Below are positions 664-21,617 of a DNA stretch of 29,458 bases, in pieces. The notes under the pieces are model-generated. The model had not been told where the DNA came from and made no database searches. It saw only the letters and a list, made by a program, of their open reading frames with translations. The stretch comes from Acutalibacteraceae bacterium (GTDB lineage Bacteria; Bacillota; Negativicutes; Veillonellales; Dialisteraceae), in the NCBI GenBank assembly GCA_963619995.1, contig CAVEYT010000001.1, positions 1 through 29,458 of the forward strand. Direction: 5' to 3'. The first letter of the stretch is position 1. Each line of letters starts with the position of its first letter. The position numbers and the translations under genes are program-made.

Positions 664-735
664 AAGCGAACCAGTGACGACTCTGCGGAGAACTCACGGA
701 AGCCTACCAATCTGCGGACTGGTAGGCTTTTCTTT
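664..735 (+). ncRNA. Structured leader/small RNA upstream of abi gene, ending in an intrinsic terminator
   Basis: Hairpin GTGA-CGA-CTC-TGCG-GAG-AAC-TCAC (674-697); terminator AAGCCTACCA...TGGTAGGCTT (700-729) + T-tract; both capped by C(UGCG)G loops. Confidence 0.55.
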
Positions 736-751
736 ATTTGGAGGTAAAAAT

Positions 752-1681
752 ATGAAGCAAATGAAATTCCATTCGGCATGCGAAGCGATTCAACACATGA
801 AAAGCCGTGGTATTACCTTCCGTTATATTTCCGAGGATGGCGCCGCCCGATTCCTCGAGAATAACAATTACTACCACAAAATCATCACATATTGCGAAAA
901 TTACCGAAAAATCCAAGACGGTATTCACGATGGAGAATATGAGCGTCTGGATTTCGCGTATCTTAAAGAGCTTTCAATTATCGATATGCATCTTAGGTAT
1001 CTGCTTATTCAAATGTGCCTTGATATCGAGCACCATATCAAATTGACGCTCATTCACGACGTTTCAAGCAATCCGCAAGAAGACGGATACAATATCGTCA
1101 ATCAATTCGATCCGAGCGGCGCAATTCGAAAACGCGTATTATCCCGCACGAGTAGCAATTACGCCTACGACCTAACAGCAGAATACCGCGAAAGCCTAAA
1201 TTTCCCCATATGGATTTTATGCGACCTTCTCACCTTCGGAGAATTATGCCACCTATACGGGACGTATGTAGATTTATATCCCGGTCGTCGGCTTCCGTCT
1301 CTCAAATTATTGTCGGCAATCCGAAGCATGCGAAACAGTTGCGCTCACAATAATTGTCTGCTGTATCGCCTTTGTTTTAGTAGCCGTCGCGGGAATACGC
1401 CCGTCATGAGTAATATCGTCTCTAAAATCCCTACGATTACAAAGACAAGCAGAAAATTCTACATGAATATTATTCCGATTCATGACTTCGTGGTGGTCTT
1501 ATATGCTTATGCCCAGTTCGTCAAAAGTAAAGGCTTGAAACGAAAACGGAAAAAGGATCTCTGTCGGCTGTTTCATCACCGAATAGCAGAACATGCGGAT
1601 TATTTCACGTCAAATCCGGCATTGATAAGTGCCTACCAATTTTGCACTCGCTTCCTTTTGTTCGTTTTGAAAAAATATTGA
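752..1681 (+). CDS. Abi family (Abi_2 / AbiD-AbiF-like) HEPN RNase, abortive infection protein
   Basis: QHMKSRGITF, FLENNNYY, LSIIDMHLRYLL...CLDIEH, PIWILCDLLTFGELCHLY and HEPN RxxxxH motif RNSCAH; RBS GGAGG before ATG 752; AT-richer than the structural genes. Confidence 0.88.
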   Translation: MKQMKFHSACEAIQHMKSRGITFRYISEDGAARFLENNNYYHKIITYCENYRKIQDGIHDGEYERLDFAYLKELSIIDMHLRYLLIQMCLDIEHHIKLTLIHDVSSNPQEDGYNIVNQFDPSGAIRKRVLSRTSSNYAYDLTAEYRESLNFPIWILCDLLTFGELCHLYGTYVDLYPGRRLPSLKLLSAIRSMRNSCAHNNCLLYRLCFSSRRGNTPVMSNIVSKIPTITKTSRKFYMNIIPIHDFVVVLYAYAQFVKSKGLKRKRKKDLCRLFHHRIAEHADYFTSNPALISAYQFCTRFLLFVLKKY

Positions 1682-1958: not shown

Positions 1959-3029
1959 ATGGAGTACAATTTCAGCGTTAGAAAGCGCGGTAACAAATGG
2001 CACTTAGTGTGCAGTTATAAAACGGCCGACGGCTGGAAGCAAAAAACAAAAGGCGGCTTCGCGCTTCGCAAGGACGCTATGGCTTGGGAGGGAAAGGAAT
2101 CTCTGATAAAGGAAATAAAAAAAGCCGAGGCCGTTTCCCCGACGTTTCAAAATATCACCCTTCGCGGCTTTCTTGAGTTTTACATCGCCGAGCACCCCAC
2201 GCTTGCCTACAATACCATTGCCACCTATAGGACGTCTATTGACGGCTTGCCATATATCGCCAATAAACCGATAAAAGATATTTCTTTGCTCGCCATCATC
2301 AGCGCTCTTCGCGCGTTGCAGCATATGCCCGGTAAATTGAAAACGGCGCGAACATTATTAAAAACGCTTTTTTCCGCTGCCGTCATGTACAACGCCATCG
2401 CGAAAAATCCGCTGGTTGATTATAAATTTCCGCAAATAAAAAGTGACAAAGAGAGCAAGCGCCTCCGCGTCTTTACGGACGAGCAAATCGCCGACGTGAT
2501 GAGACGCGGCGCGGATGACGAGCCGTCCTTAATAATGGCCATCGCCGCTGCCACCGGTATGCGAGCCGGTGAGATACTCGGTCTTAAATGGAGCGACATC
2601 GATTTTGTCGCAAGCCGCCTGACGGTCAATAAGCAGTGGAAACGGATCGGGCGCGAAAACGGAAAAACGATATACGGCTTTGGCAACGTCAAAAGCAAAA
2701 ACGGAAACCGCACTCTATTTATACCGCCGTCCTTGATGCGTGTCCTGATAGAATATAAGGCAAGCCATCCCATCAATATCAGTGGCCGCATTGCAACAAT
2801 AGACACCACGTCGAGCTTAAATTATCGCGTCGAAACTCGCTACCCCAACCACTCGATGCATGACTTCCGGCACACATTCGGCACGCGTTTATCCTTGACG
2901 TGTCCAAACGTCTCTATCCTCGCGGCAACTCTCGGCGACAGCGAAGAAACAGTGGTTAAGACGTACTTGAACTACAGCGAAGAAATGCGAAAGGCGGCCG
3001 AAACGCACATAGCGGAAATGTTCTCATGA
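1959..3029 (+). CDS. int: Phage integrase, tyrosine recombinase with N-terminal arm-binding domain
   Basis: TGMRAGEILGLKWSDIDF (Arg), VKSK (Lys), HDFRHTF (HxxR), LGDS, KTYL (Tyr); N-terminal RKRGNKW...WKQKTKGGF; RBS AAGGAG. Confidence 0.96.
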   Translation: MEYNFSVRKRGNKWHLVCSYKTADGWKQKTKGGFALRKDAMAWEGKESLIKEIKKAEAVSPTFQNITLRGFLEFYIAEHPTLAYNTIATYRTSIDGLPYIANKPIKDISLLAIISALRALQHMPGKLKTARTLLKTLFSAAVMYNAIAKNPLVDYKFPQIKSDKESKRLRVFTDEQIADVMRRGADDEPSLIMAIAAATGMRAGEILGLKWSDIDFVASRLTVNKQWKRIGRENGKTIYGFGNVKSKNGNRTLFIPPSLMRVLIEYKASHPINISGRIATIDTTSSLNYRVETRYPNHSMHDFRHTFGTRLSLTCPNVSILAATLGDSEETVVKTYLNYSEEMRKAAETHIAEMFS

Positions 3030-3031
3030 AA

Positions 3032-3257
3032 TTTATTGCCACTTTTATTGCCACTTCCGTGCGAAATCGCATAAACAAGCGGAAAATTAGGTGTTTGATT
3101 ATATTTTTTAATTATATGGCATCTCGGCAAAAAAAGCTACAAAAAGATATATTTTGCTATTTTTCGGACAAAAATGCCTTTTTGTGTCTTTTGGCGCGTC
3201 AGGAAAAACTATAAAAAGCTAAATTTCATTTGCCACTTTTTTGCCACTTTTGACATT
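3032..3257. other. Probable attP: integrase arm-type repeats flanking an AT-rich core region
   Basis: TTTATTGCCACT twice in tandem (3032-3055); TTGCCACTT at 3230-3238 and 3241-3249; degenerate TTGACATT at 3250-3257; directly after the int stop, with phage genes on both sides. Confidence 0.7.
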
Positions 3258-3337: not shown

Positions 3338-3745
3338 TTATTCTTCCGGAATGTCTATTCCGGCCTTCCGGAGTTCCTCTTTCTGCCAATCTCTCAGGTC
3401 GAATTTCGGCATCGGCTCGTCGCCGTAGTAAATCGCCGGTGTGATATTGATGATCGAAAGTGTGCTGTCGTATATGTCGTGATATTCTTCGCCGTCGTAT
3501 TCCCAGGTGGTGCCTTCTTCGATATCTTCTTCCGTCGCCGGTGTCGCTTCTACGAGCCAGACTTGCGCCCACTCTTCCTCGCCGCGTCTTTGCGCGTCGG
3601 CCATGTGGCGGATTTCAAATCTCGTGAGACGAGTCTGCACCATATCAAGCGCGCGCTCTTCCAAGAGACCTTCGCCGACGACTGCATGTGATTCTGTGGC
3701 GCCTGACATTTCGGCGAAAATTGTGAAAACTTTTTTGCTTGCCAT
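3338..3745 (-). CDS. Acidic hypothetical protein (135 aa), candidate anti-defence protein
   Basis: RBS AAAGGAG + ATG 3745 (MASKKVFTIF...); E/D-rich; last gene of the operon containing the AcrIC5-like gene. Confidence 0.75.
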   Translation of the reverse strand: MASKKVFTIFAEMSGATESHAVVGEGLLEERALDMVQTRLTRFEIRHMADAQRRGEEEWAQVWLVEATPATEEDIEEGTTWEYDGEEYHDIYDSTLSIINITPAIYYGDEPMPKFDLRDWQKEELRKAGIDIPEE

Positions 3746-3768
3746 TTTGTTTACTCCTTTACGAAAAC

Positions 3769-3966
3769 TTAATCCGATTCTTTTTGCTGTCCATACAGCC
3801 GCTCCATTCCGGCGCGAGTGACGAGCCATGTCCGGCCGGACTTGCGGAACTCCTCAGGACGGAAGCCGTTTTTCACGCGGCCTTGGCAGTTTTGCTTCAG
3901 CGCGTTTGGCGTAATACCCCAGCGTTCGCCCGCCTCTAGTGTTGTCATCACATCCTCAAGCTCCAC
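3769..3966 (-). CDS. Small helix-turn-helix protein (65 aa), candidate Aca-like autoregulator
   Basis: GGAGG + GTG 3966; LEDVMTTLEAGERWGITPNALKQNC...FRKSGRTWLVTRAGMERLYG resembles excisionase/MerR-like winged HTH. Confidence 0.8.
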   Translation of the reverse strand: MELEDVMTTLEAGERWGITPNALKQNCQGRVKNGFRPEEFRKSGRTWLVTRAGMERLYGQQKESD

Positions 3967-4099
3967 GCCACAGCCTCCATCCGATATATCCACCAATCAC
4001 AAGGCCGCTGATCAGTGCTTCGACGGCCACTTTGTCCCACGCGAGCGCTGACAATCCAAGCACTGACGCAGCAATAACCACTACATCACATGTTTTCAT
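3956..4099 (-). CDS. Small membrane protein (47 aa; not in ORF track)
   Basis: RBS AAGGAGG + ATG 4099; MKTCDVVVIAASVLGLSALAWDKVAVEALISGLVIGGYIGWRLWRGA*; two hydrophobic segments; stop overlaps HTH gene start. Confidence 0.7.
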   Translation of the reverse strand: MKTCDVVVIAASVLGLSALAWDKVAVEALISGLVIGGYIGWRLWRGA

Positions 4100-4112
4100 T
4101 TCGCCCCTCCTT

Positions 4113-4298
4113 TTAATCGACGCGAAATTCTTCGCCGTATTTTTCTTTGTGCGCTTTGCAATACGCTTCTAAAAATTCTTCTTCGCTGCAGGGCGCCATT
4201 TCGCGGTGCAGCTCTTCGCGAATATCATCATCCATTAAGGCCTCCGCCGCGACGTACGAAATTTCCTGTCCATTGAGATTCACGATTTTGTTTGCCAT
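4113..4298 (-). CDS. acrIC5: AcrIC5-like anti-CRISPR protein (61 aa)
   Basis: LNGQEI...AA..LMD..REELH...EFLEAY..AH..KYGEEF.V matches end to end the AcrIC5 sequence as I recall it (LNGQQIDFDAAVNLMDAELREELH...EFLDAYVQAHAAKFDGEEFQV); acidic; RBS AGGAGG. Confidence 0.8.
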   Translation of the reverse strand: MANKIVNLNGQEISYVAAEALMDDDIREELHREMAPCSEEEFLEAYCKAHKEKYGEEFRVD

Positions 4299-4648: not shown

Positions 4649-4696
4649 AATAGAAAAACGGCACAGGTCATTTCTAACCTGTGCCGTTTTTCTATT
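4649..4696. terminator. Terminator ending the late/lysis operon (potentially bidirectional)
   Basis: Perfect 20-bp inverted repeat AATAGAAAAACGGCACAGGT-N8-ACCTGTGCCGTTTTTCTATT. Confidence 0.85.
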
Positions 4697-5093
4697 TTAC
4701 ACACGCCCACACGACCGCTCCAATGGCGACCGCTGCCCATATGTTCCGCTGCCTATTCTTGACGGTCTCCTTGCGTTTCTGCTCTTTCTCGTATTCTTGC
4801 AAGGATGCTTCGGCTTTCTGCAATGAGTTCACCGTCGCTTCGTTCGAGTCGCTCAAGAGTTTCAGCCGTGCGTTGGCTGTCGCTAACTGCGCCTGCAGCG
4901 TCTTCAATGATTCCTCTTTGGTTTTCGAGTTCTCGGCTAGCGTTTCTAAGTTCCGCTCGAGCGTCGCCAGTTCCTCCTCCGTCACTTGGTACGTCATCGC
5001 GTAGGCCGGGGGATAGCAGGACGGCAGCAGCAAGCAGAAGAGTAACAAGGCAAAAGCTGAGAGCAAGAGTTTTCGGTGATTTAACCATCTCAT
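4692..5093 (-). CDS. Spanin-like protein: signal peptide, coiled coil, C-terminal hydrophobic anchor (133 aa)
   Basis: MRWLNHRKLLLSAFALLLFCLLLPSC (lipobox-like) or AYA SPase I site; heptad-rich middle; IWAAVAIGAVVWAC at the C-terminus; follows the endolysin. Confidence 0.6.
   Translation of the reverse strand: MRWLNHRKLLLSAFALLLFCLLLPSCYPPAYAMTYQVTEEELATLERNLETLAENSKTKEESLKTLQAQLATANARLKLLSDSNEATVNSLQKAEASLQEYEKEQKRKETVKNRQRNIWAAVAIGAVVWACVK
4753..5088 (-). CDS. i-spanin (Rz)-like protein nested in a different frame (111 aa)
   Basis: N-terminal hydrophobic helix LALSFCLVTLLLAAAVLL, Gly-rich linker, helical charged C-terminus; ATG 10 nt from the shared GAGGAGG. Confidence 0.5.
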   Translation of the reverse strand: MVKSPKTLALSFCLVTLLLAAAVLLSPGLRDDVPSDGGGTGDARAELRNASRELENQRGIIEDAAGAVSDSQRTAETLERLERSDGELIAESRSILARIRERAETQGDRQE

Positions 5094-5103
5094 GCTGCCC
5101 TCC

Positions 5104-5685
5104 TCAGTGCCACTCATTCATGTCGTAGTAGGCGCCGTCGATTTCATAGGCGTCGGTGTACTGCCAGCCTTTCAGGGTGTTTCCCGGGAAATATTCCGCA
5201 AAGTCGCAAGTCCGGTCGTACTGCGCGCACCAATATGGAACGTAGTCTGCTAGGGCTTTGACGTCGATATTGTCGATAAAGGTGTAGAGGCTTGCGTAGA
5301 TGCCGGCGCTGTAATCGCGATGATTGCAGGCCGTGATAAAGGCGGAGCATATCGCGGTGACGTCGGCTTTTTTGAGGCGCAGGACGTCGTCTTCTTCGAC
5401 GTCGTACCAGATGCCGAGCTTCGGTGCGCCGTGGCCGAGCTCCTCGATGGCGTTTAGGACGACTTCGGCTTCTTCTTTCGCGCGGTCCGTGGTTTTGGCG
5501 TGGGTGTAGCAGTAAACGCCCCACAGGAGGCCGTGCGCTTCGGCTGCGGCGATTTGGTCGGCGTAAAGATCGGCCAGGTCGCGACCTTCGGAAATTTTGA
5601 CGATGACTCCCTCGACGTGATGCGTCTTGATCACGCTATCCCAGTCAATTTGGTCATTCCATCCGGAAATATCCATGACTTTCAT
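5104..5685 (-). CDS. Endolysin, GH25 muramidase (catalytic domain only)
   Basis: MDISGWNDQIDW, VIVKISEG, GVYCY, WYDVE, GIYAS, WCAQY, GWQYTD, DMN motifs; RBS AAGGAG before ATG 5685. Confidence 0.92.
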   Translation of the reverse strand: MKVMDISGWNDQIDWDSVIKTHHVEGVIVKISEGRDLADLYADQIAAAEAHGLLWGVYCYTHAKTTDRAKEEAEVVLNAIEELGHGAPKLGIWYDVEEDDVLRLKKADVTAICSAFITACNHRDYSAGIYASLYTFIDNIDVKALADYVPYWCAQYDRTCDFAEYFPGNTLKGWQYTDAYEIDGAYYDMNEWH

Positions 5686-5701
5686 TTTTTTTCGCTCCTT
5701 T

Positions 5702-6022
5702 CTATTTTTCTTTTGCTTTGACTTCCGCCGCGTCCGGCCGCCCGTCTCGATTTTTGTCCACATGGTAAACCGATAGAAACGTGACGGCAGCGACAACGGA
5801 CACGGATGTGTACTCTCTAAAGAAACTGATGAGTATCGTGATGTCCGGCGTTCCGGTCATGTACCACTGATAGCTCCAGCCCGCAATAAGTAAGAGGGTG
5901 ATGATGGCTAGGCCGGAGCCGTACAGGCAGACAATACGCATGCTGTCTTTAGCGGTGCCTCGCTTGGCCTTGGTGATGTTTCCGGCGGCTTTGGTGAGGT
6001 GGCCTTTGAGCTTGTCTAGCAT
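5702..6022 (-). CDS. Putative holin (two hydrophobic segments)
   Basis: Hydrophobic IVCLYGSGLAIITLLLIAGW and SVSVVAAVTFLSVY; charged C-terminus; directly upstream of the endolysin. Confidence 0.6.
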   Translation of the reverse strand: MLDKLKGHLTKAAGNITKAKRGTAKDSMRIVCLYGSGLAIITLLLIAGWSYQWYMTGTPDITILISFFREYTSVSVVAAVTFLSVYHVDKNRDGRPDAAEVKAKEK

Positions 6023-6348
6023 GACTCCTCCTTTAGCTTCCTTTTCAGGAGCGGCCGGATGTCTTCTATCATCTGTGTCGCTTGGCCATTTCCACCCAGG
6101 CTGTGGTATCGTTCGTAGATTTCCTCCGCCAGGTCTTCGTCCTCAAGGCCGATGTAGCCTTTGGCTAAAGACTCTAGGTACAGCTCTCTCAGGTTGCATT
6201 TCAAGAGCGTCCGCAATGACTCTTCGATGAGCGCTCTGTTCTTGCGGAGACTCTGCACTTTGTTCCAAAGGAAACCGACGGCGATACCCAGCAAGGTCGG
6301 GATGTAATGGATAATGCCCGCAAGCAAGGCTTCCATGTTCTCCGTCAT
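6016..6348 (-). CDS. Holin-like phage membrane protein (YxxLGGNG family)
   Basis: Single N-terminal TM helix; IYERYHSLGGNG motif typical of Firmicutes phage lysis-cassette proteins. Confidence 0.65.
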   Translation of the reverse strand: MTENMEALLAGIIHYIPTLLGIAVGFLWNKVQSLRKNRALIEESLRTLLKCNLRELYLESLAKGYIGLEDEDLAEEIYERYHSLGGNGQATQMIEDIRPLLKRKLKEESC

Positions 6349-6584
6349 TCAGCCTTCTCCAACTCTTCCAGCTCTTTCTGCGCCGCGTTGATTTTGTCTC
6401 TTATGCTCTGACGGTCTGCCAGCAAGGTATCCGTGTCGTAGGGGTCTTTCTCGCCCTTGAGCCGTGCCTCGTAAGTTTTCACGATTTTATAATCGCCGAT
6501 TGCCGAGTTTTCGCCCGAAAGCTCCGACTTGAGATTGATGATTTCCTGCTGAAGGATTAAGATTTTTCTTTGCTTTTCGTCCAT
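6345..6584 (-). CDS. Small helical phage protein (DYKIVK motif), possibly tail-fibre associated
   Basis: RBS AAGGAG; GDYKIVK...RQSIRDKIN pattern; overlaps RT 3' end; ATGA overlap with the next gene. Confidence 0.65.
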   Translation of the reverse strand: MDEKQRKILILQQEIINLKSELSGENSAIGDYKIVKTYEARLKGEKDPYDTDTLLADRQSIRDKINAAQKELEELEKAE

Positions 6585-7729
6585 GATGATTGTCTCCTTT
6601 TGTAAAAATCCATAGACTTTAGAGTTTTGTAGGCGTTATCCCGTTTCTTATCGCCTCGCCACGCGCGGTACTGGTTTTCGTACTCTTCGGCGGTCATGTC
6701 TCCCGCCGTGACTTTCTGGGCGAGTTTCTTGAGTTTGCGCCGCTCTCTTTTGGTGACGTCTTTCGGGATTTTCTTGATGATTTTTCCCGTCGACGTCAGG
6801 ATGTAGCGGGTTTTCAGCCACGTGAAGCCGTGACTGAGCTTGACTATCTGCGTTTTCTTTCGGTTGACATAGATGCCGAGCCGCTTGGCAAGTGTCTCGA
6901 TATCCCGCAGTAGGTCGCGAAGGAACACTTTATCTGGGTGCAGGACGATTCGGTCGTCCATGTAGGCGTCGTAGCAGTGTACCGATTTGACTGTTTTCAC
7001 GTATTGGTCAATCAGCGTCGGATACAAGATGCCGATGATTTGAGATATCGGTGCGCCGATGCCTAGAGATTTCTGCATCATTCTGTCACCCGTCAAGCGT
7101 TCCTTTGGAATTTTGACGTATTCCAGCGAGTTAAAAACTTCGTCCATGAGGTCATGCTCCGTATAGGAAATGTCCACCTCGTAGGTCTTTAGGATTTTCT
7201 TCGCCAGATTCGTCAGTTCCTCGTCTCGGAAAATAGTCTCGAGCTGTCTGATGGCGTCCTCGTGTCGGATGTTGTCAAAGTACTTTGAGAAATCGACAAT
7301 GAGCGCATAGCCTTCTATACCGTAGCGCCGATAGTGCCAGCGTAAATGCTCCTCGAAACGGCGTCTCGTAAAAGATAGCCCTCTGCCTTTCAGCCCTGCG
7401 CCGTTGTCATAGATGATGTGCTCTTTGACTTTTGGAATTATCACGCCGTCGCACAAGGCGTGCTGTAATACCGCGTCTCGCGGGGTCATGGATTTCACGA
7501 GCCGCCTGTGTCCGTTTTCGTTGATTTCAAAAACGGAGCCTTCCTGCGGTTCGTAAGTTCCCGTCTCGATTTCTCTTTTTAGCTTGGCGATTTCCGAAAG
7601 CCGATTCAAGAGAAATGCCTGTGATTTGTACTTCCACCCTGAGGATTTCGCCAATTTCTTAGCGGCTTCAAGGTATTGATTTACTGTGATGTTCATGATG
7701 TTTGAGATATGCCACGCCGATAGCGGCAA
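6557..7729 (-). CDS. DGR reverse transcriptase (start uncertain: TTG 7729 or ATG 7696)
   Basis: RDAVLQHAL, GKG-like GRG, VDFSKYFDNIRH, DGR-type LGIGAPISQ motif, catalytic YMDD, GFTWLK; no maturase or endonuclease extension. Confidence 0.95.
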   Translation of the reverse strand: MPLSAWHISNIMNITVNQYLEAAKKLAKSSGWKYKSQAFLLNRLSEIAKLKREIETGTYEPQEGSVFEINENGHRRLVKSMTPRDAVLQHALCDGVIIPKVKEHIIYDNGAGLKGRGLSFTRRRFEEHLRWHYRRYGIEGYALIVDFSKYFDNIRHEDAIRQLETIFRDEELTNLAKKILKTYEVDISYTEHDLMDEVFNSLEYVKIPKERLTGDRMMQKSLGIGAPISQIIGILYPTLIDQYVKTVKSVHCYDAYMDDRIVLHPDKVFLRDLLRDIETLAKRLGIYVNRKKTQIVKLSHGFTWLKTRYILTSTGKIIKKIPKDVTKRERRKLKKLAQKVTAGDMTAEEYENQYRAWRGDKKRDNAYKTLKSMDFYKRRQSSWTKSKEKS

Positions 7730-7941
7730 TATCCGTAGATAGCCGCGTCATGGCATTTGTTTACCATTTGGAAGGATACACACTCATTCCCTGCTCCGAT
7801 GTCTGACTTTTAGTCTCTTGATATCGTCTGAGAAGCGGGCGCACGCCCCCGACATTCGAGGCGTTGTTGTTGTTGGCATTGCCATTCTCGCTGGCATTGG
7901 CGAAATTCGACGAGTTCGCGATTAGCGTGTACCCCATGATA
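7730..7941 (-). ncRNA. DGR template RNA region (5' flank + TR + spacer)
   Basis: Non-coding gap between avd and RT containing TR; 5' flank 7935-7925 can pair with spacer 7783-7773. Confidence 0.75.
7836..7921 (-). repeat. DGR template repeat (TR)
   Basis: 86-bp ungapped match to 8532-8617; reads GCG AAC TCG TCG AAT TTC GCC AAT GCC AGC GAG AAT GGC AAT GCC AAC AAC AAC AAC GCC TCG AAT GTC GGG GGC GTG CGC CCG; 10 AAY codons, 22 adenines. Confidence 0.96.
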
Positions 7942-8469
7942 TTATTCCAATTTCGCCCTTCTTTTATTGTCTGACTTGCGCCAGCCCTTGAGTAGAGCGA
8001 TTTCCCTGTCTACTGCTTCTGCATACTGTATTAGCTTTTCTGCCTTGACTGGCAAGATGTCAGCCGCCAGCTCTAATTCCTGTTTGAGACTTTCGCAATC
8101 TGCAATCGCTAAATCTTGCGCGTTTCTCCGTAGGTCGGCTTCGGCTTTCGTCGTCGCCCAGATGGTGTAAGCCTGCGTGATGTGTTGCATCATGCGGCTA
8201 AGGCTCTTTAGGATGCCGTCTCGGACGTGCTCTATCATCCAGAGGGGATAATCGTCTATCACTTTTGTTTCGCCGTATTTTTCGAGCAGTTCGGCAAAAG
8301 TAATGGCGTCTTGCGGCTCCCATTTCTTCGTGCAAAATCTCGGCTCGCGGATTCTTGGCTTTACGCCAAAATCTCTGCCCATCAGAAATATGAGTTGCCT
8401 TCTGAGTTTCACGGCGTTCATGTAAAATTCGAGCTTAGACAAGCTGCGGTTTCGTGCTAATACAGACAT
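7942..8469 (-). CDS. avd: DGR accessory variability determinant (Avd-like four-helix bundle)
   Basis: MSVLARNRSLSKLEFY; RRNAQDLAIADCESLKQEL; EIALLKGWRKSD; lies between target and TR; RBS AAAGGAG. Confidence 0.88.
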   Translation of the reverse strand: MSVLARNRSLSKLEFYMNAVKLRRQLIFLMGRDFGVKPRIREPRFCTKKWEPQDAITFAELLEKYGETKVIDDYPLWMIEHVRDGILKSLSRMMQHITQAYTIWATTKAEADLRRNAQDLAIADCESLKQELELAADILPVKAEKLIQYAEAVDREIALLKGWRKSDNKRRAKLE

Positions 8470-8486
8470 GTTGTCTCCTTTCTAAA

Positions 8487-8505
8487 GCGCCCCACAAGGG
8501 GGCGC
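8487..8505 (-). promoter_or_regulatory. DGR target-recognition hairpin/cruciform downstream of VR
   Basis: GCGCCCC-CTTGT-GGGGCGC (7-bp GC stem), 8 nt after the target stop codon. Confidence 0.8.
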
Positions 8506-8513
8506 AGACAGGG

Positions 8514-9407
8514 TCAGCGGAGCAGGAAATACGGGCGCACGCCCCCGACATTGGAGGCGCCGCTGATGATGGCACAGCCATACTCGCTGGCATTGGCGAA
8601 ACCCGACAAGTTCGCGACGTCTCGGAGCCAGCACCAATAGGCTCTTGTAAAGTTCTGACCGTATCTAAAGATGGCAAGCTGTTTATTGCAATCGCCTTCT
8701 TCTTGCCCCGAGGACGCCATCGGGTGATTGCCATACATCATTGCCTGATTGGGGATGTTGACCTTGACCGTTGTCCACAGTGAGCCGCTCCAATCCCAGT
8801 AGGCGCTGCCCGTCCAGCATGCTCCTGCGGATGAGGCGGCGTTGGCGTTCATGCCGTTTGTCAGTATTTCCTTGTGCTCTAAAACGTGTGCGCTTCCGAA
8901 GGCGTTCACGATTCCCGTGACATACAGCGGTATCGTGGTTTTCCACATATAGCTTCCCTGATAGCCGCCAGCCGTGGTGTTCGTGCTGTTCATATAGCTC
9001 GTGCCGAGATTGTTCTCTGGTATCATCACGACATGGTGCGCCGTGGTTTCCGTACTGCCGCGGTGCAGGTGATAGTCCAAATCTGCCACGAGCCACTTTA
9101 CGTTGCTGTAGGTCGTGCCGTTGACCGTCACGGATTTCGTGATGTAGTCGCCAGGGAAAATATCATCAAAGGTACCAGCGGCGATGGCAGTACTCATGCC
9201 GCCGGAGTTAAAGTAACTTGTCAAGTCTTTGCCACGGTAGATGCTGTTGTGTGATGCCGCCGTTTTGGGCAAAATTTCAGCCAAAAGCTGTGTCTTTAAT
9301 GCTTCAAACGTGATGGCCTGCGTTTCATTCGTGCCTTCCGCCAGAAACAGGTCGGTGTCTTCCAGTGTTGCCACTTCGGGCAAATTGGTGATTGGGATTC
9401 CTGCCAT
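8514..9407 (-). CDS. DGR target protein, putative receptor-binding protein with C-terminal C-type-lectin-like variable domain
   Basis: Ends YWCWLRDV-[VR]-GGVRPYFLLR*, typical of CLec-fold DGR targets; last gene of the tail fibre cluster. Confidence 0.9.
   Translation of the reverse strand: MAGIPITNLPEVATLEDTDLFLAEGTNETQAITFEALKTQLLAEILPKTAASHNSIYRGKDLTSYFNSGGMSTAIAAGTFDDIFPGDYITKSVTVNGTTYSNVKWLVADLDYHLHRGSTETTAHHVVMIPENNLGTSYMNSTNTTAGGYQGSYMWKTTIPLYVTGIVNAFGSAHVLEHKEILTNGMNANAASSAGACWTGSAYWDWSGSLWTTVKVNIPNQAMMYGNHPMASSGQEEGDCNKQLAIFRYGQNFTRAYWCWLRDVANLSGFANASEYGCAIISGASNVGGVRPYFLLR
8532..8617 (-). repeat. DGR variable repeat (VR)
   Basis: 12 mismatches vs TR, 10 at TR adenines (AAT>GGT, AAT>TAT, AAT>TGT, AAC>ATC x2, AAC>AGC, AAC>GGC); GC-rich 3' end. 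Confidence 0.96.
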
Positions 9408-10743: not shown

Positions 10744-11268
10744 TCAGCCTTCGGGGGCTGTTTCTTCCGCGACTGTCGCAATGAGGGCGTTCTTCATGGC
10801 TATAGCGATTAGGGCTTCCACGTCGGCTCTCGTGACAAAGCCTGTCTGCGGAACGGTGATGTCTACCTCGTCGGCTGTTTCGACGTCAATCTTGATAGTC
10901 CATTCTTTATCATATGGACCGCTTGACGCAGTGTCGATGGCGCTCGGCATATCGTAGTAGTGGGCGCAATACAAAATTTCCCCTTCGTCCGGGTCGGTGG
11001 CATACAGGCCTAGTTCTCTGACGTAAAAAGCATTCTCGATGGACGCATTAGAAATGGTGCCTCTTACTTCGCAGGAAGCCCCGTCCGCCAGAATGAGCGA
11101 AATAGGAAAATCTATCACTCTTTTTACTAAATCGTTCATTGTGGCGTAATCTTTTTGCGTGGCGACATAGCCCTCTCCAAGCGCCATTTTCGTAAATGCA
11201 TATTTGCATTTTCCGGCCATGACTTTTGCTTGTAATGCTTTTCCTTTGTCTGTAATCATGTATCCCAT
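10744..11268 (-). CDS. Phage tail-collar fibre N-terminal-domain protein (DUF3751-like), short
   Basis: ITDKGKAL...FTKMALGEG...FYVRELGLYATDPDEGEILY motif. Confidence 0.8.
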   Translation of the reverse strand: MGYMITDKGKALQAKVMAGKCKYAFTKMALGEGYVATQKDYATMNDLVKRVIDFPISLILADGASCEVRGTISNASIENAFYVRELGLYATDPDEGEILYCAHYYDMPSAIDTASSGPYDKEWTIKIDVETADEVDITVPQTGFVTRADVEALIAIAMKNALIATVAEETAPEG

Positions 11269-11279
11269 ATGTGACCTCC

Positions 11280-12230
11280 TTAGGCAATGCGCTGCCAGAC
11301 GTTGACAGCAATGGATGCGGGTGTGATATCTAACGGCTCGCCTGAGCCGAGCGCTTCTGTCTGCCCTGTGTGGGTGTGGCTTCCGCTGTATCCCGTCTTC
11401 GCCGCGCGTTTGAGATTGTTGTAGGGGCGATTGTCCCCGTAAGCTAGCCGCGTCTTTTCCGGGTCTCCTCCGCCACCGTTCGTGGTATCAAAGCCGATTT
11501 CATCCAAAAAGTCCGAGGCGGCGTGTTGATGGTTTCCGGCACTGTCGGTCGATACGGAAATCTTGTCTTTCGGCAAGTTCTTTCTGGCAATCGTCGCTTG
11601 ATTCGAGCCGTAGTTTTTGCCGACTTCGTAGCCGTCCCCTGCCGTGATGAGCGCCTTGCCGCTGCCCATCTTCTGCCACGTGGTGGTCGGCCATAAATCA
11701 TTCGGGTCGACGCCGTTAAAGAGGAGCACTGACGCGCCCACAGGATAGACTTGGTCGATGGTCAGTGCGTCTTTCTTCAGAAGATACAAATCACTGTCGG
11801 CCGAGATGGTGATTTCCGCATCTCCTACCGCCAGATGGACCGTGTAAATCTGATTGAGTTTCGACGACGCGCTGTAAGCAGGCACATAGTTTCCGTCCAG
11901 CTTCGCCACGGCAAAGAGCGTTTCCTCATTGCTTTCCGGGTCTTTTACATACAATCCGGCTTCCCGCGCGTAATATCCCTCGGTGAGCGCATCGTTTCGG
12001 ATGGCGGCCGATACTTCCATACTGCCGTCTCGCTGTGTGATGCTGTTGATGAGGAGATTCTGCTTTGCTTCCACGAGAGCCGTCAGCGCCCGCAGCTCCG
12101 TTTCATCCTCCGGCAATACACCGTCTCCCAGCTTCAGAGAGGAAATTTCAATCATCGTCCCGGCAATCCCGAGCCGCAAGATTTCATTTCCTCGCTTGGT
12201 GAGATAATATTTGTTGATTTCAATCGCCAT
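11280..12230 (-). CDS. Tail fibre protein (DUF3751-like N-terminus + collar-like C-terminus)
   Basis: LTKRGNEIL...LGDG...GYYAREAGLYVKDP; YPVGA...P...W, AGNHQH/SHTH motifs, VNVWQRIA end. Confidence 0.8.
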   Translation of the reverse strand: MAIEINKYYLTKRGNEILRLGIAGTMIEISSLKLGDGVLPEDETELRALTALVEAKQNLLINSITQRDGSMEVSAAIRNDALTEGYYAREAGLYVKDPESNEETLFAVAKLDGNYVPAYSASSKLNQIYTVHLAVGDAEITISADSDLYLLKKDALTIDQVYPVGASVLLFNGVDPNDLWPTTTWQKMGSGKALITAGDGYEVGKNYGSNQATIARKNLPKDKISVSTDSAGNHQHAASDFLDEIGFDTTNGGGGDPEKTRLAYGDNRPYNNLKRAAKTGYSGSHTHTGQTEALGSGEPLDITPASIAVNVWQRIA

Positions 12231-12936
12231 ACAATACCTCCGTATCAAACTCGCCTGCGACGGCGTAAGCCTTTATCCCGCCTGACAATTTCGCATCATA
12301 CGGCGCGGCGCGGATGTCGACGTATTTTGTCAAGACTGCGCCGATGCCGATATAAATCGGTGCGTCACAATCCGCTATCAACTCGATTTCGCGTGTCAGC
12401 GTTTCTTGGTCGAATTCGGATGTCACGGCGATCAGCTTGCAGGATTCTTCCGTTTTGTACTCGATCCCGTCCATCCATGAGCGCACATTCTTCGCGTCCG
12501 TCATTGCCTTCATGAGAGCGCGCAGCTCGTCCATGCTCGGAATCGCGCTTGTCGTGACAGCCTTGAAGTGATACGGTTTCCCGTCATAATCAAACCATTC
12601 GACGATTTCCGCATTCTTCGACGCTAGGGCGGCCGCTTCCTTGACCGCCCACATCGTCCCTTTGTAGCGGTGATAACGTATCGCGGTCTTGACGGCGTTC
12701 CGCTTCGTCTCGATGTCGGCGGCGTCGTCGTAAATGTCCATGTGATATTCCCACGCGAGCGCATCCAGTATGTCCTCCGGCAATTCGTCGATACGCGACA
12801 AAATCAAAATGTTCCGGATGTTTCCCGTGACGTCATTGATGGATGCGTCCAATGACTTTGCGACATTTTGCACCGTCTCATCTTTGGCGATGGAGAACGG
12901 GGCAATCTGTAAGAGTTCAGCGTCATCGATTTTCAT
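12220..12936 (-). CDS. Baseplate/tail protein I (P2 gpI-like)
   Basis: IDELPEDILDALAWEYH, HRYKGT, VEWFDYDGKPYHF, KNVRSW. Confidence 0.88.
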   Translation of the reverse strand: MKIDDAELLQIAPFSIAKDETVQNVAKSLDASINDVTGNIRNILILSRIDELPEDILDALAWEYHMDIYDDAADIETKRNAVKTAIRYHRYKGTMWAVKEAAALASKNAEIVEWFDYDGKPYHFKAVTTSAIPSMDELRALMKAMTDAKNVRSWMDGIEYKTEESCKLIAVTSEFDQETLTREIELIADCDAPIYIGIGAVLTKYVDIRAAPYDAKLSGGIKAYAVAGEFDTEVLYGD

Positions 12937-20171: not shown

Positions 20172-21617
20172 TTATGCGAAAAGCGTACTGAAATAATCGG
20201 GGTCGTACTCGATGACGTTCTCGATCTCCCGCGCCGGCGTCGGCGGCGTAAAGTACGTGTGAAACTTGATAATCCCGTCCAAAAGATTCGTCGTCGCGTT
20301 TTCATCCTCGCGGAACTCCACCCGCGCACCGAGAAGCGCACCGGACGCCACATAGGAATTGAGCCGAATGTTTTCGCTGTCGACAATCGTCTGAATGAGC
20401 CGCTTCGTGATAGGCTTGTCCACCTTCGTCCAGTATGTCTGAATGAACGTCTGCGCCTGCCAGTAGAACATCCGCTTGATGGAAATGAAAGCGTCCTTCG
20501 CGTCCGTATTCGACGGATAGCAACCCGTCCGATTGCCCCACGCCTTCCAGCCGCCAATGAAATTGAGCGCCGTCACGACGCCCTGGCCGTTCAAGTAATT
20601 CGCATTCTCCGGTCCCAGAATGATTTCGTTTCCGTCCGCGTCACACGTCCCCTGAATATTCATCGTCTTATTGGACGGCGATTCATACGGCACATCGTCA
20701 TTCGACGCATCGACGGAGGAAATCACGCCCATCATGTGGACGGACATGTGATATACCACATCGCCGTTTCTCACCATCGGCCAGCAGACGATTTCATTCT
20801 CGCCGACGTAGTTATTGGAATTTTTCCAAGAGGAAACTTCCGTGTACTTCGTGACTTCATCCGCCGGAATGTCCACGAGCACCATCGCTTTAAAATGCTC
20901 ATTGATATTGAGCGCTTTCGCTTTCATGACGGATTCCACCGCCGGGTTTCCGCTGTAGCCCGGCGCTAGCACCAAGCCCGGGACAAGGCCGGTGATGGGG
21001 AATACTTGATTCAGACATTCCAGCCCTTTCGCCTCGCCCGTCGTCGTGTCGATGCCGCCGATGATATCGGAATACGTCACGGCCGACGCGTCCAGCGCGT
21101 CATACGTCACATACGCATTCTTCGCTTTCGCCAAGGCGCCGCCCGTCAAAATGCTGATAATCAGCACGCCGTCATCGTCATAGGCTGCCGTGTAATCGGT
21201 ATCGACGACGCAGGTTGCGCCCTCCGCCGATACTTTTACGACGAGCGTATCCAGCAATACGGCATCTTCCACCGTCGCCGCACCGTCCGTGATTTCCACG
21301 GTCGCGGTCTTTTTCGCTTTATGCTTCTTCGAATCCAGTACGTTCACCAATACGACGGGACCGTACCCGTACAACGCGAACTGCGAATACATCGCCTCGC
21401 ACAATGTGTACTTTTCCCAATCGGCGCTGTAGCCGAAAGCCGCGACGGCCTCGGCGTAGCTGTAGCAAAGTGTCGGGCGATTCGCCGGCGCGGCATCACT
21501 GGCCAGATGCACCGGCGCCGTGCCGAAAATGACAGGAAGTCCCGCTGTCGTATTCACGGCCGGGACAATGCTCGTCGGCAATTCAGACACGTATACGCCA
21601 TGTTTATACCCGCTCAT
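20172..21617 (-). CDS. Contractile tail sheath protein
   Basis: YKHGVYVSE, GTAPV, YESPSNK, ANYLNGQGV, WGNRT, PPTPAREI. Confidence 0.94.
   Translation of the reverse strand: MSGYKHGVYVSELPTSIVPAVNTTAGLPVIFGTAPVHLASDAAPANRPTLCYSYAEAVAAFGYSADWEKYTLCEAMYSQFALYGYGPVVLVNVLDSKKHKAKKTATVEITDGAATVEDAVLLDTLVVKVSAEGATCVVDTDYTAAYDDDGVLIISILTGGALAKAKNAYVTYDALDASAVTYSDIIGGIDTTTGEAKGLECLNQVFPITGLVPGLVLAPGYSGNPAVESVMKAKALNINEHFKAMVLVDIPADEVTKYTEVSSWKNSNNYVGENEIVCWPMVRNGDVVYHMSVHMMGVISSVDASNDDVPYESPSNKTMNIQGTCDADGNEIILGPENANYLNGQGVVTALNFIGGWKAWGNRTGCYPSNTDAKDAFISIKRMFYWQAQTFIQTYWTKVDKPITKRLIQTIVDSENIRLNSYVASGALLGARVEFREDENATTNLLDGIIKFHTYFTPPTPAREIENVIEYDPDYFSTLFA

Follow-up and report, generated by a model that had tools for sequence, protein, structure and literature searches.

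Does the tail region of a phage in an assembly labelled Acutalibacteraceae bacterium (GCA_963619995.1, contig CAVEYT010000001.1) hold a functional diversity-generating retroelement (DGR), and which protein would such an element diversify? The window analysed here comprises the first 29,458 bases of a 33,350-bp contig, which belongs to a genome bin of 246 contigs that is 83% complete. On its minus strand lie, in this order, a target gene, a DNA hairpin, an avd-like accessory gene, a template repeat (TR), a spacer and a reverse transcriptase (RT) gene. I consider it very probable that these constitute a complete DGR of the type known from Bordetella phage BPP-1, placed among the tail genes of a temperate phage and likely rewriting 12 C-terminal codons of a predicted C-type-lectin-like tail-tip protein. 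Three things were observed directly: the parts in this arrangement, the adenine-specific differences between the TR and the variable repeat (VR) in the target gene, and the hypervariation confined to the VR in close relatives.

Template and variable repeats

The strongest direct repeat in the window is a pair of 86 bp with 86% identity. The TR, at positions 7836-7921, contains 22 adenines, and the VR, at 8532-8617, covers target codons 265-292 of 297, in frame at the C-terminus. Ten of the 12 mismatches between the two coincide with TR adenines, every one of them in position 1 or 2 of an AAY codon, and the chance of at least 10 of 12 mismatches falling on adenines is small (P = 9e-6). The 22 adenines are spread over 12 codons, namely ten AAY, one AGC and one GAG, from which 4^22 = 1.8e13 DNA variants and 9.2e12 protein variants, and no stop codon, can be reached; mutagenesis of AAY itself leads to a set of 15 residues, also without a stop. 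A preliminary description of this stretch, made from the letters alone, had given the same repeat length, mismatches, codon positions, adenines and codons and the same absence of stops, and recomputation returned identical values.

At the 3' end of the repeat, 18 nucleotides (8532-8549) are G+C-rich and identical in TR and VR, and by analogy with BPP-1 (PMC3240598) they are likely the (GC)n part of an initiation of mutagenic homing (IMH) element. The segment beyond the identity on the VR side (8514-8531) is likely the IMH, and its counterpart on the TR side (7818-7835) differs, so that a G+C tract followed by divergence likely represents an IMH/IMH*-like arrangement. Within the repeat, codon 288 (8544-8546 in the VR, 7848-7850 in the TR) reads GGG in this TR as against AAC in many relatives, and encodes Gly in all 30 distinct close VRs; judged from these sequences, a variable codon was apparently lost here in the lineage. 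In the related proteins P0126, P0133, P0004, P0145 and P0214 the VR contains an inserted codon close to the AAC run, which is consistent with slippage or with a longer TR.

Reverse transcriptase, avd, hairpin and spacer

The RT gene (6557-7696) encodes 379 amino acids from its ATG, or 390 when the open reading frame is counted from a TTG, and matches RVT_1 (E 1.6e-12) and phrog_1423 (E 2.8e-53). A YMDD motif is present at residues 245-248 (6953-6964). The best of its five matches in the PDB is the 328-amino-acid RT of 8UB7 (E 9e-8), which I take to be the BPP-1 bRT, and the next is a group II intron RT (0.004), while the protein scores far below the NCBIfam cut-offs for the group II, retron and defence-associated RT (DRT) models. 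A frameshift at the RT C-terminus was considered and rejected, the same tail, overlapping the next gene, being found in the closest homologues. With the adenine bias, this RT match and open reading frames for target, avd and RT, the DGR identity, BPP-1-like layout and intact genes of the preliminary description are borne out.

The avd-like gene (7942-8469, 175 amino acids) matches phrog_3206, 'Avd protein of DGR', at E 3.9e-5; a homologue is present in 63 of 80 RT loci, and the position is the same in relatives. The hairpin (8487-8505), 3' of the target stop, has a G+C stem of 7 bp and the 5-nucleotide loop CTTGT, and on the coding strand it is more stable than all 200 shuffled sequences (z -3.5). 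Among 67 distinct related loci, 61 have a stem of at least 5 bp after the VR, 43 of them with a 5-nucleotide loop, and the stem sequences differ. The spacer between TR and RT (7697-7835) is conserved both as sequence and in its predicted RNA fold; of the 27 pairs predicted, 12 are changed on both sides across 15 loci, which are kin and were compared without a shuffle control. An Rfam search gave 0 matches, and a scan for promoters and terminators gave no signals above chance. The cassette of target, avd, TR and RT also stands behind unrelated tail modules and N-termini in other loci (L001-L009 and L093), and it therefore appears to move between phage types.

Variation among relatives

The target belongs to a cluster at 90% identity with 23 members, of which the 15 listed carry 13 distinct VRs. 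Among these 15, all 12 codons with TR adenines are variable, with a mean pairwise difference of 0.89. Of the 16 remaining VR codons 2 vary (0.017), and beyond the VR 29 of 269 positions do (0.034). When 30 distinct VRs from 32 close proteins are considered, 358 of the 360 residues at TR-adenine codons belong to the 15-residue set of AAY. An exact 21-nucleotide TR/VR motif gave 0 matches in metagenome contigs, and since no DNA relative beyond about 81% identity in the target domain was found, the close relatives were compared as proteins only. More distant loci could be compared as DNA: in 14 groups of loci with identical TR, 194 of 201 variable VR columns lie on TR adenines. A further count, 1216 of 1285 mismatches at adenines, was left unused as evidence, the pairs having been filtered for adenine bias. 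As judged from these alignments, the DGR lineage is active, and the check proposed in the preliminary description, VR variation confined to TR adenines in related sequences, was passed at the level of the lineage.

Could the repeat be a product of chance, or of misassembly, beside an unrelated RT? In favour of this there is only the nature of the assembly, a metagenome bin of 246 contigs. The adenine bias given above, the VR-only variation in relatives, and a layout that recurs in independent contigs with a repeat spacing of 693-699 bp refute such an origin, to which I assign practically no probability. Moreover, no other locus in the genome agrees with more than 37 of the 64 non-adenine TR positions, and a second or remote VR was not found there.

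Target protein

The target gene (8514-9407) is an open reading frame of 297 codons, with an N-terminal adaptor of approximately residues 1-45 followed by a C-type-lectin-like, DUF6273-type domain that ends in the VR; 2,620 homologues were found. Residues 45-297 were modelled from an alignment of 147 sequences (predicted local distance difference test (pLDDT) 96.4, predicted template modelling score (pTM) 0.93), while an earlier model from 38 sequences (pLDDT 53), which had no Foldseek match, was discarded. Compared by VIA-align with 48,161 PDB representatives, the model is closest to the N-terminal domain of 9QA6 (Z 12.1, root-mean-square deviation 3.1, 175 aligned), followed by BACOVA_04982 (Z 7.8), Legionella Lcl (7.3), Bd2740 (5.5) and TvpA (5.3), and further by many animal C-type lectins and by Mtd (1YU0, Z 4.3). 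The 9QA6 domain, described in the literature on that structure as coming from a gut immunoglobulin A (IgA) peptidase, is named DUF6273 in one paper (PMC12402451) and termed C-type-lectin-like in another (PMC12237041). Foldseek matched the model to DUF6273 proteins at E values down to 1.8e-8 and, in BFVD, to proteins that include receptor-binding and tail-collar fibre proteins, and among Atlas neighbours at 0.95-0.96 DUF6273 is found in 26-90% of members. The DUF6273 profile PF19789 leaves this target unmatched and matched 7 of 38 relatives weakly (best E 0.034), and profile searches against PDB sequences gave nothing significant. The model, obtained by the structure prediction that the preliminary description had suggested, gives with confidence a C-type-lectin-like fold, probably of DUF6273 type.

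Across relatives the domain occurs as a module on varied N-termini, and in 15 of the best 120 target homologues the tail-collar fibre domain PF12571 is fused in front of it. The C-terminal half of ORF23 of Lactobacillus phage JCL1032, which is annotated as a tail fibre and as 'possibly associated in host specificity', also shares 35% identity with the domain (E 2e-35). A third lead is a gene of 79 codons (6345-6584) that overlaps the end of the RT gene and possibly encodes the tail-assembly chaperone of the target: it follows the RT in 35 of 80 RT loci, stands directly after the target where avd, TR and RT are deleted, and has as nearest named Atlas cluster a tail assembly chaperone at 0.84, which is a lead only. 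Because of these fusions, the tail-fibre end of ORF23 and this neighbouring gene, the target is likely a tail-tip receptor-binding protein, and the tail-associated, lectin-like character given to it beforehand agrees with the model and with the fusions. The 'tropism switching' of the preliminary description would follow by analogy, from BPP-1 and from the tail context.

Alternatively, the target could be an accessory adhesin of the virion that binds mucus, glycans or antibodies and promotes persistence in the gut, and not a host-receptor-binding protein. Tail-collar fibres are encoded by two other genes of the phage, the nearest solved fold comes from an IgA peptidase of the gut, and DUF6273/C-lectin domains head the tentaclins, for which binding to bacterial receptors or to gut cells has been proposed (PMC10743442). 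However, in relatives the domain is joined to a tail-collar fibre domain and forms the end of the JCL1032 tail fibre, both receptor-binding proteins and tail-collar fibre proteins are among the matches in BFVD, and immunoglobulin (Ig) repeats are absent here, so I find this alternative improbable.

The element may be expected to work as in BPP-1, where RT and Avd copy the TR RNA and adenines are misread. A transcript spanning avd, TR, spacer and RT would be bound by RT and Avd, the structured spacer would prime cDNA synthesis across the TR, and adenines of the TR RNA would be miscopied on the way. Replacement of the VR by this cDNA would start at the G+C tract next to the DNA hairpin; by analogy with BPP-1 (PMC3240598), the hairpin would serve as the recognition signal, and the divergent segment beyond the tract would set the direction. 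Located at the tip of a tail fibre, the target would bind the host envelope, progeny phage would display new binding surfaces, and selection on adsorption would keep the alleles that fit the host surface.

State of this copy

Several observations weigh against a complete and working element. The avd match, though specific, is weak (the E value given above) and comes from PHROGs only, Pfam and NCBIfam giving none; searches with the target sequence gave no match in Pfam or PHROG and none of significance in NCBIfam, and the target itself lacks the tail-collar domain; and two of the 12 TR/VR mismatches fall off adenines, a C>T in codon 267 (S>L) and a silent G>C in codon 285. Non-adenine mismatches also occur among related pairs (at least one in 37 of 83, at least two in 17 of 83), and Wu et al. 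reported them in 23% of DGRs (PMC5758913). Finally, RT codon 353 (6638-6640) encodes Asp in a column that is aromatic in all 120 homologues (Tyr 117, Phe 2, His 1), including P0266, which is 94% identical; three further departures from well-conserved RT columns are conservative. This private Asp353, together with a TR that appears to have lost part of two codons (see below), is the reason to doubt the activity of this copy, which on balance is probably still active. The wording 'apparently functional' of the preliminary description thus stands for the lineage, with its VR-only hypervariation in relatives, and carries the caveat of Asp353 for this copy.

A true DGR could recently have been silenced or weakened here, the substitution at residue 353 impairing the enzyme and freezing the VR allele. 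Beside the invariably aromatic column, such a course is suggested by the frequency of shut-down in the clade: of 30 loci with target homologues, L097 (4816-4889), L110 (1530-1650) and L009/L109 (4855-5127, one contig) are without avd, TR and RT, and two of them retain deletion scars, in L097 half a hairpin and a scar of the RT end, in L009 a scar of an avd-RT fusion. Another locus, L098, has a TR reduced to 12 adenines, and in an infant gut phage an RT deletion has been described as freezing a VR (10.1101/2023.08.07.552389). However, YMDD, the other near-invariant RT columns, avd, spacer and hairpin are all intact, residue 353 is far from the active site in sequence, and in an assembly from a metagenome a difference of one base may stem from an error or from a minor allele. 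I therefore regard silencing of this copy as rather unlikely.

The second ground for doubt lies in the TR. Its codons AGC GAG (7887-7892), corresponding to target codons 274-275 and repeated with the same bases in the VR (8583-8588), are likely eroded from AAY AAY. In all 12 other distinct VRs of the cluster members listed, codons 274-275 encode residues that cannot be reached from this TR and can be reached from AAY, and Glu275 is one of the only two residues of the 360 outside the AAY set. The TR is fixed while the VR varies in the 14 groups with identical TR, and this TR, as judged from proteins, seems to differ from those of its closest relatives at codons 274-275. The TR has likely lost part of two variable codons, from 15 to 4 choices each, or about 14-fold in protein space.

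This patch is part of a 19-bp block that is identical in TR and VR and holds four unchanged adenines (chance about 0.04-0.09). It likely arose when VR sequence or mutagenised cDNA overwrote a short piece of the template. That the TR instead changed by ordinary drift of point mutations, which were afterwards transferred to the VR, comes close to an even chance: three base changes suffice and one of them is off adenine, normal homing copies any TR change into the VR so that sharing gives no direction, the AAY state of the closest relatives' TRs is deduced from proteins, and a theory paper predicts loss of TR adenines by point mutation in stable settings (10.64898/2026.02.18.706561). However, the changes cluster in two adjacent codons inside the identical block, and clearer cases occur among relatives. 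L098 (TR 5420-5504) has three mismatches to its own VR and derived bases common to TR and VR, a state seen in one of 83 unique pairs; it shares 97.7% identity with L099 in the RT, as against 76.7% in the TR, and L099 retains 12 AAY codons. L042 and L039/L040 are 100% identical over 400 nucleotides, with TRs differing at two adenines only. Two mis-anchored rows of locus L070 were excluded from this template comparison. On natural template overwrite, a literature search returned only engineered cases and the theory paper. That this DGR is winding down, with a template tract overwritten by VR-type sequence and a damaging RT substitution, is a combination I consider unlikely.

Comparison with known systems

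In its gene order, C-terminal VR and AAY-coded adenine mutagenesis the element resembles the BPP-1 DGR (mtd-VR/IMH/hairpin, avd, TR, spacer, brt; PMC3240598), as it does in the G+C tract before a divergent IMH-like segment, the G+C hairpin after the VR, the YMDD RT closest to 8UB7 and the C-type-lectin fold that its target shares with Mtd. It differs in the size of its TR (86 bp with 22 adenines), in a DUF6273-type target without sequence match to Mtd, in a Gram-negative-type Firmicute as host of a phage with a contractile-type tail, and in the 5-nucleotide hairpin loop as against the GRNA tetraloop of BPP-1 (PMC3240598), a difference of subtype that does not define DGRs. As a kind, it is an ordinary, canonical example of a well-known system and adds nothing.

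The nearest catalogued phage DGRs are those of Acutalibacter phage Fontainebleau (ON453893) and Roseburia phage Shimadzu (LR596903). The target-accessory-TR-RT cassette of Fontainebleau also precedes lysis genes and has a 94-bp repeat pair 715 bp apart. However, both have Clostridia as hosts and share less than 40% identity with this DGR (Fontainebleau target 32% and RT 37%, Shimadzu RT 35%), and the annotation of the Fontainebleau tail genes names minor tail and tape-measure proteins but not the baseplate set of this phage. In the DUF6273 targets of Faecalibacterium prophages (PMC11792537) and of phages nd4 and nd12 (PMC10743442) the VR likewise ends a DUF6273 domain with a predicted C-type-lectin fold, whereas their RTs are 28-32% identical to this one, and here there is a single adjacent target with no second or remote VR and no Ig-domain tentaclin. 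JCL1032 ORF23, a tail fibre of 474 amino acids, has a C-terminal domain 35% identical over 259 columns, the VR-equivalent end included, but neither an RT nor a TR/VR pair next to it. A connection with LL-H Gp71, for which host-range mutants are described (PMC3870949), was considered and not established, LL-H being absent from the target matches listed (25 of 73 records).

In gut phages of Firmicutes, DGRs that target tail proteins are common (PMC8144416, PMC12629997), and a literature search with Dialister and Megasphaera gave no dedicated description of DGRs in phages of Negativicutes.

Phage and host

According to Pfam and PHROG profiles, the gene content of the window is that of a phage only, with terminase, lambda-type portal, capsid, tape measure, endolysin, integrase and repressor, and with a tail module of baseplate J, P2-like and tail-collar fibre genes. 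The phage is of gut type, temperate and, as its baseplate J and P2-like genes indicate, of the contractile-tail type. The two tail-collar fibre genes, found with Pfam and PHROG, occupy 10744-11268 and 11280-12248, and the lysis genes 4692-5796. The preliminary description had put the DGR between tail fibre and lysis genes, a placement that holds loosely, with small open reading frames between the target and the fibre genes. A perfect 20-bp inverted repeat after the lysis genes (4649-4696) is likely a terminator.

The same TR/VR pair is present in a locus titled Dialister sp. (genome G062), of the same family as the host bin, which represents a different genus, and in a locus titled Megasphaera elsdenii (genome G051) of the same order. 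These sequences suggest that the host of the phage likely belongs to the Dialisteraceae in the Negativicutes. The host assignment is supported by a spacer of clustered regularly interspaced short palindromic repeats (CRISPR) in the host bin (C76:142-171) that matches window positions 20258-20287, within a likely tail-sheath gene, in 30 of 30 bases. The array, beside a Cas9-like gene, has 17 spacers, and the other 16 show at least nine mismatches to the phage. Non-hosts, however, often target DGR phages (PMC13739734).

The order of features at 1959-3255 (repressor, Abi-like gene, integrase, short imperfect repeats at 3017-3056 and 3222-3249, then the anti-CRISPR/lysis end, arranged head to head with the integrase side, with no host genes) looks like an intact phage attachment site (attP) and hence like an excised or free phage. 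A bacterial site (attB) had no convincing match in the host genome, and no terminal repeat was found. The abortive-infection-like Abi_2 gene (674-1681, plus strand; PF07751, E 1.3e-22) stands between repressor and integrase in an A+T-richer stretch. After the lysis genes, an anti-CRISPR-like locus (3338-4298, minus strand) contains an AcrIC5 match (4113-4298; PF22147, E 8e-25), a helix-turn-helix gene (3769-3996) and an acidic gene of 135 codons (3338-3745) without family, in a cluster of two, for which no relatives were found in the viral contigs searched. The last is a candidate anti-CRISPR gene because the host bin has type I-C genes as well as a Cas9-like gene with a perfect anti-phage spacer. 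The type I-C genes lie on contig C141 (Cas8c by profile, cas3- and cas5-like open reading frames by eye), where at 1-1901 Cas8c is split over a run of N into two pieces that overlap, probably by a join made in assembly.

Conclusion

As a data point, this locus is of value for recording an active DGR clade in Negativicutes phages and for linking a DUF6273 target both to tail fibres and to a C-type-lectin-like fold that has been solved. Its relatives are natural material on how DGRs are switched down, template mutagenesis having been found, in the literature consulted, only for engineered systems. If the element were indeed winding down, then, together with the nearly complete overwrite in L098, the template changes confined to adenines in L042 and the three deletion derivatives, it would make natural template erosion in this Negativicutes clade a graded, selectable brake on hypermutation.

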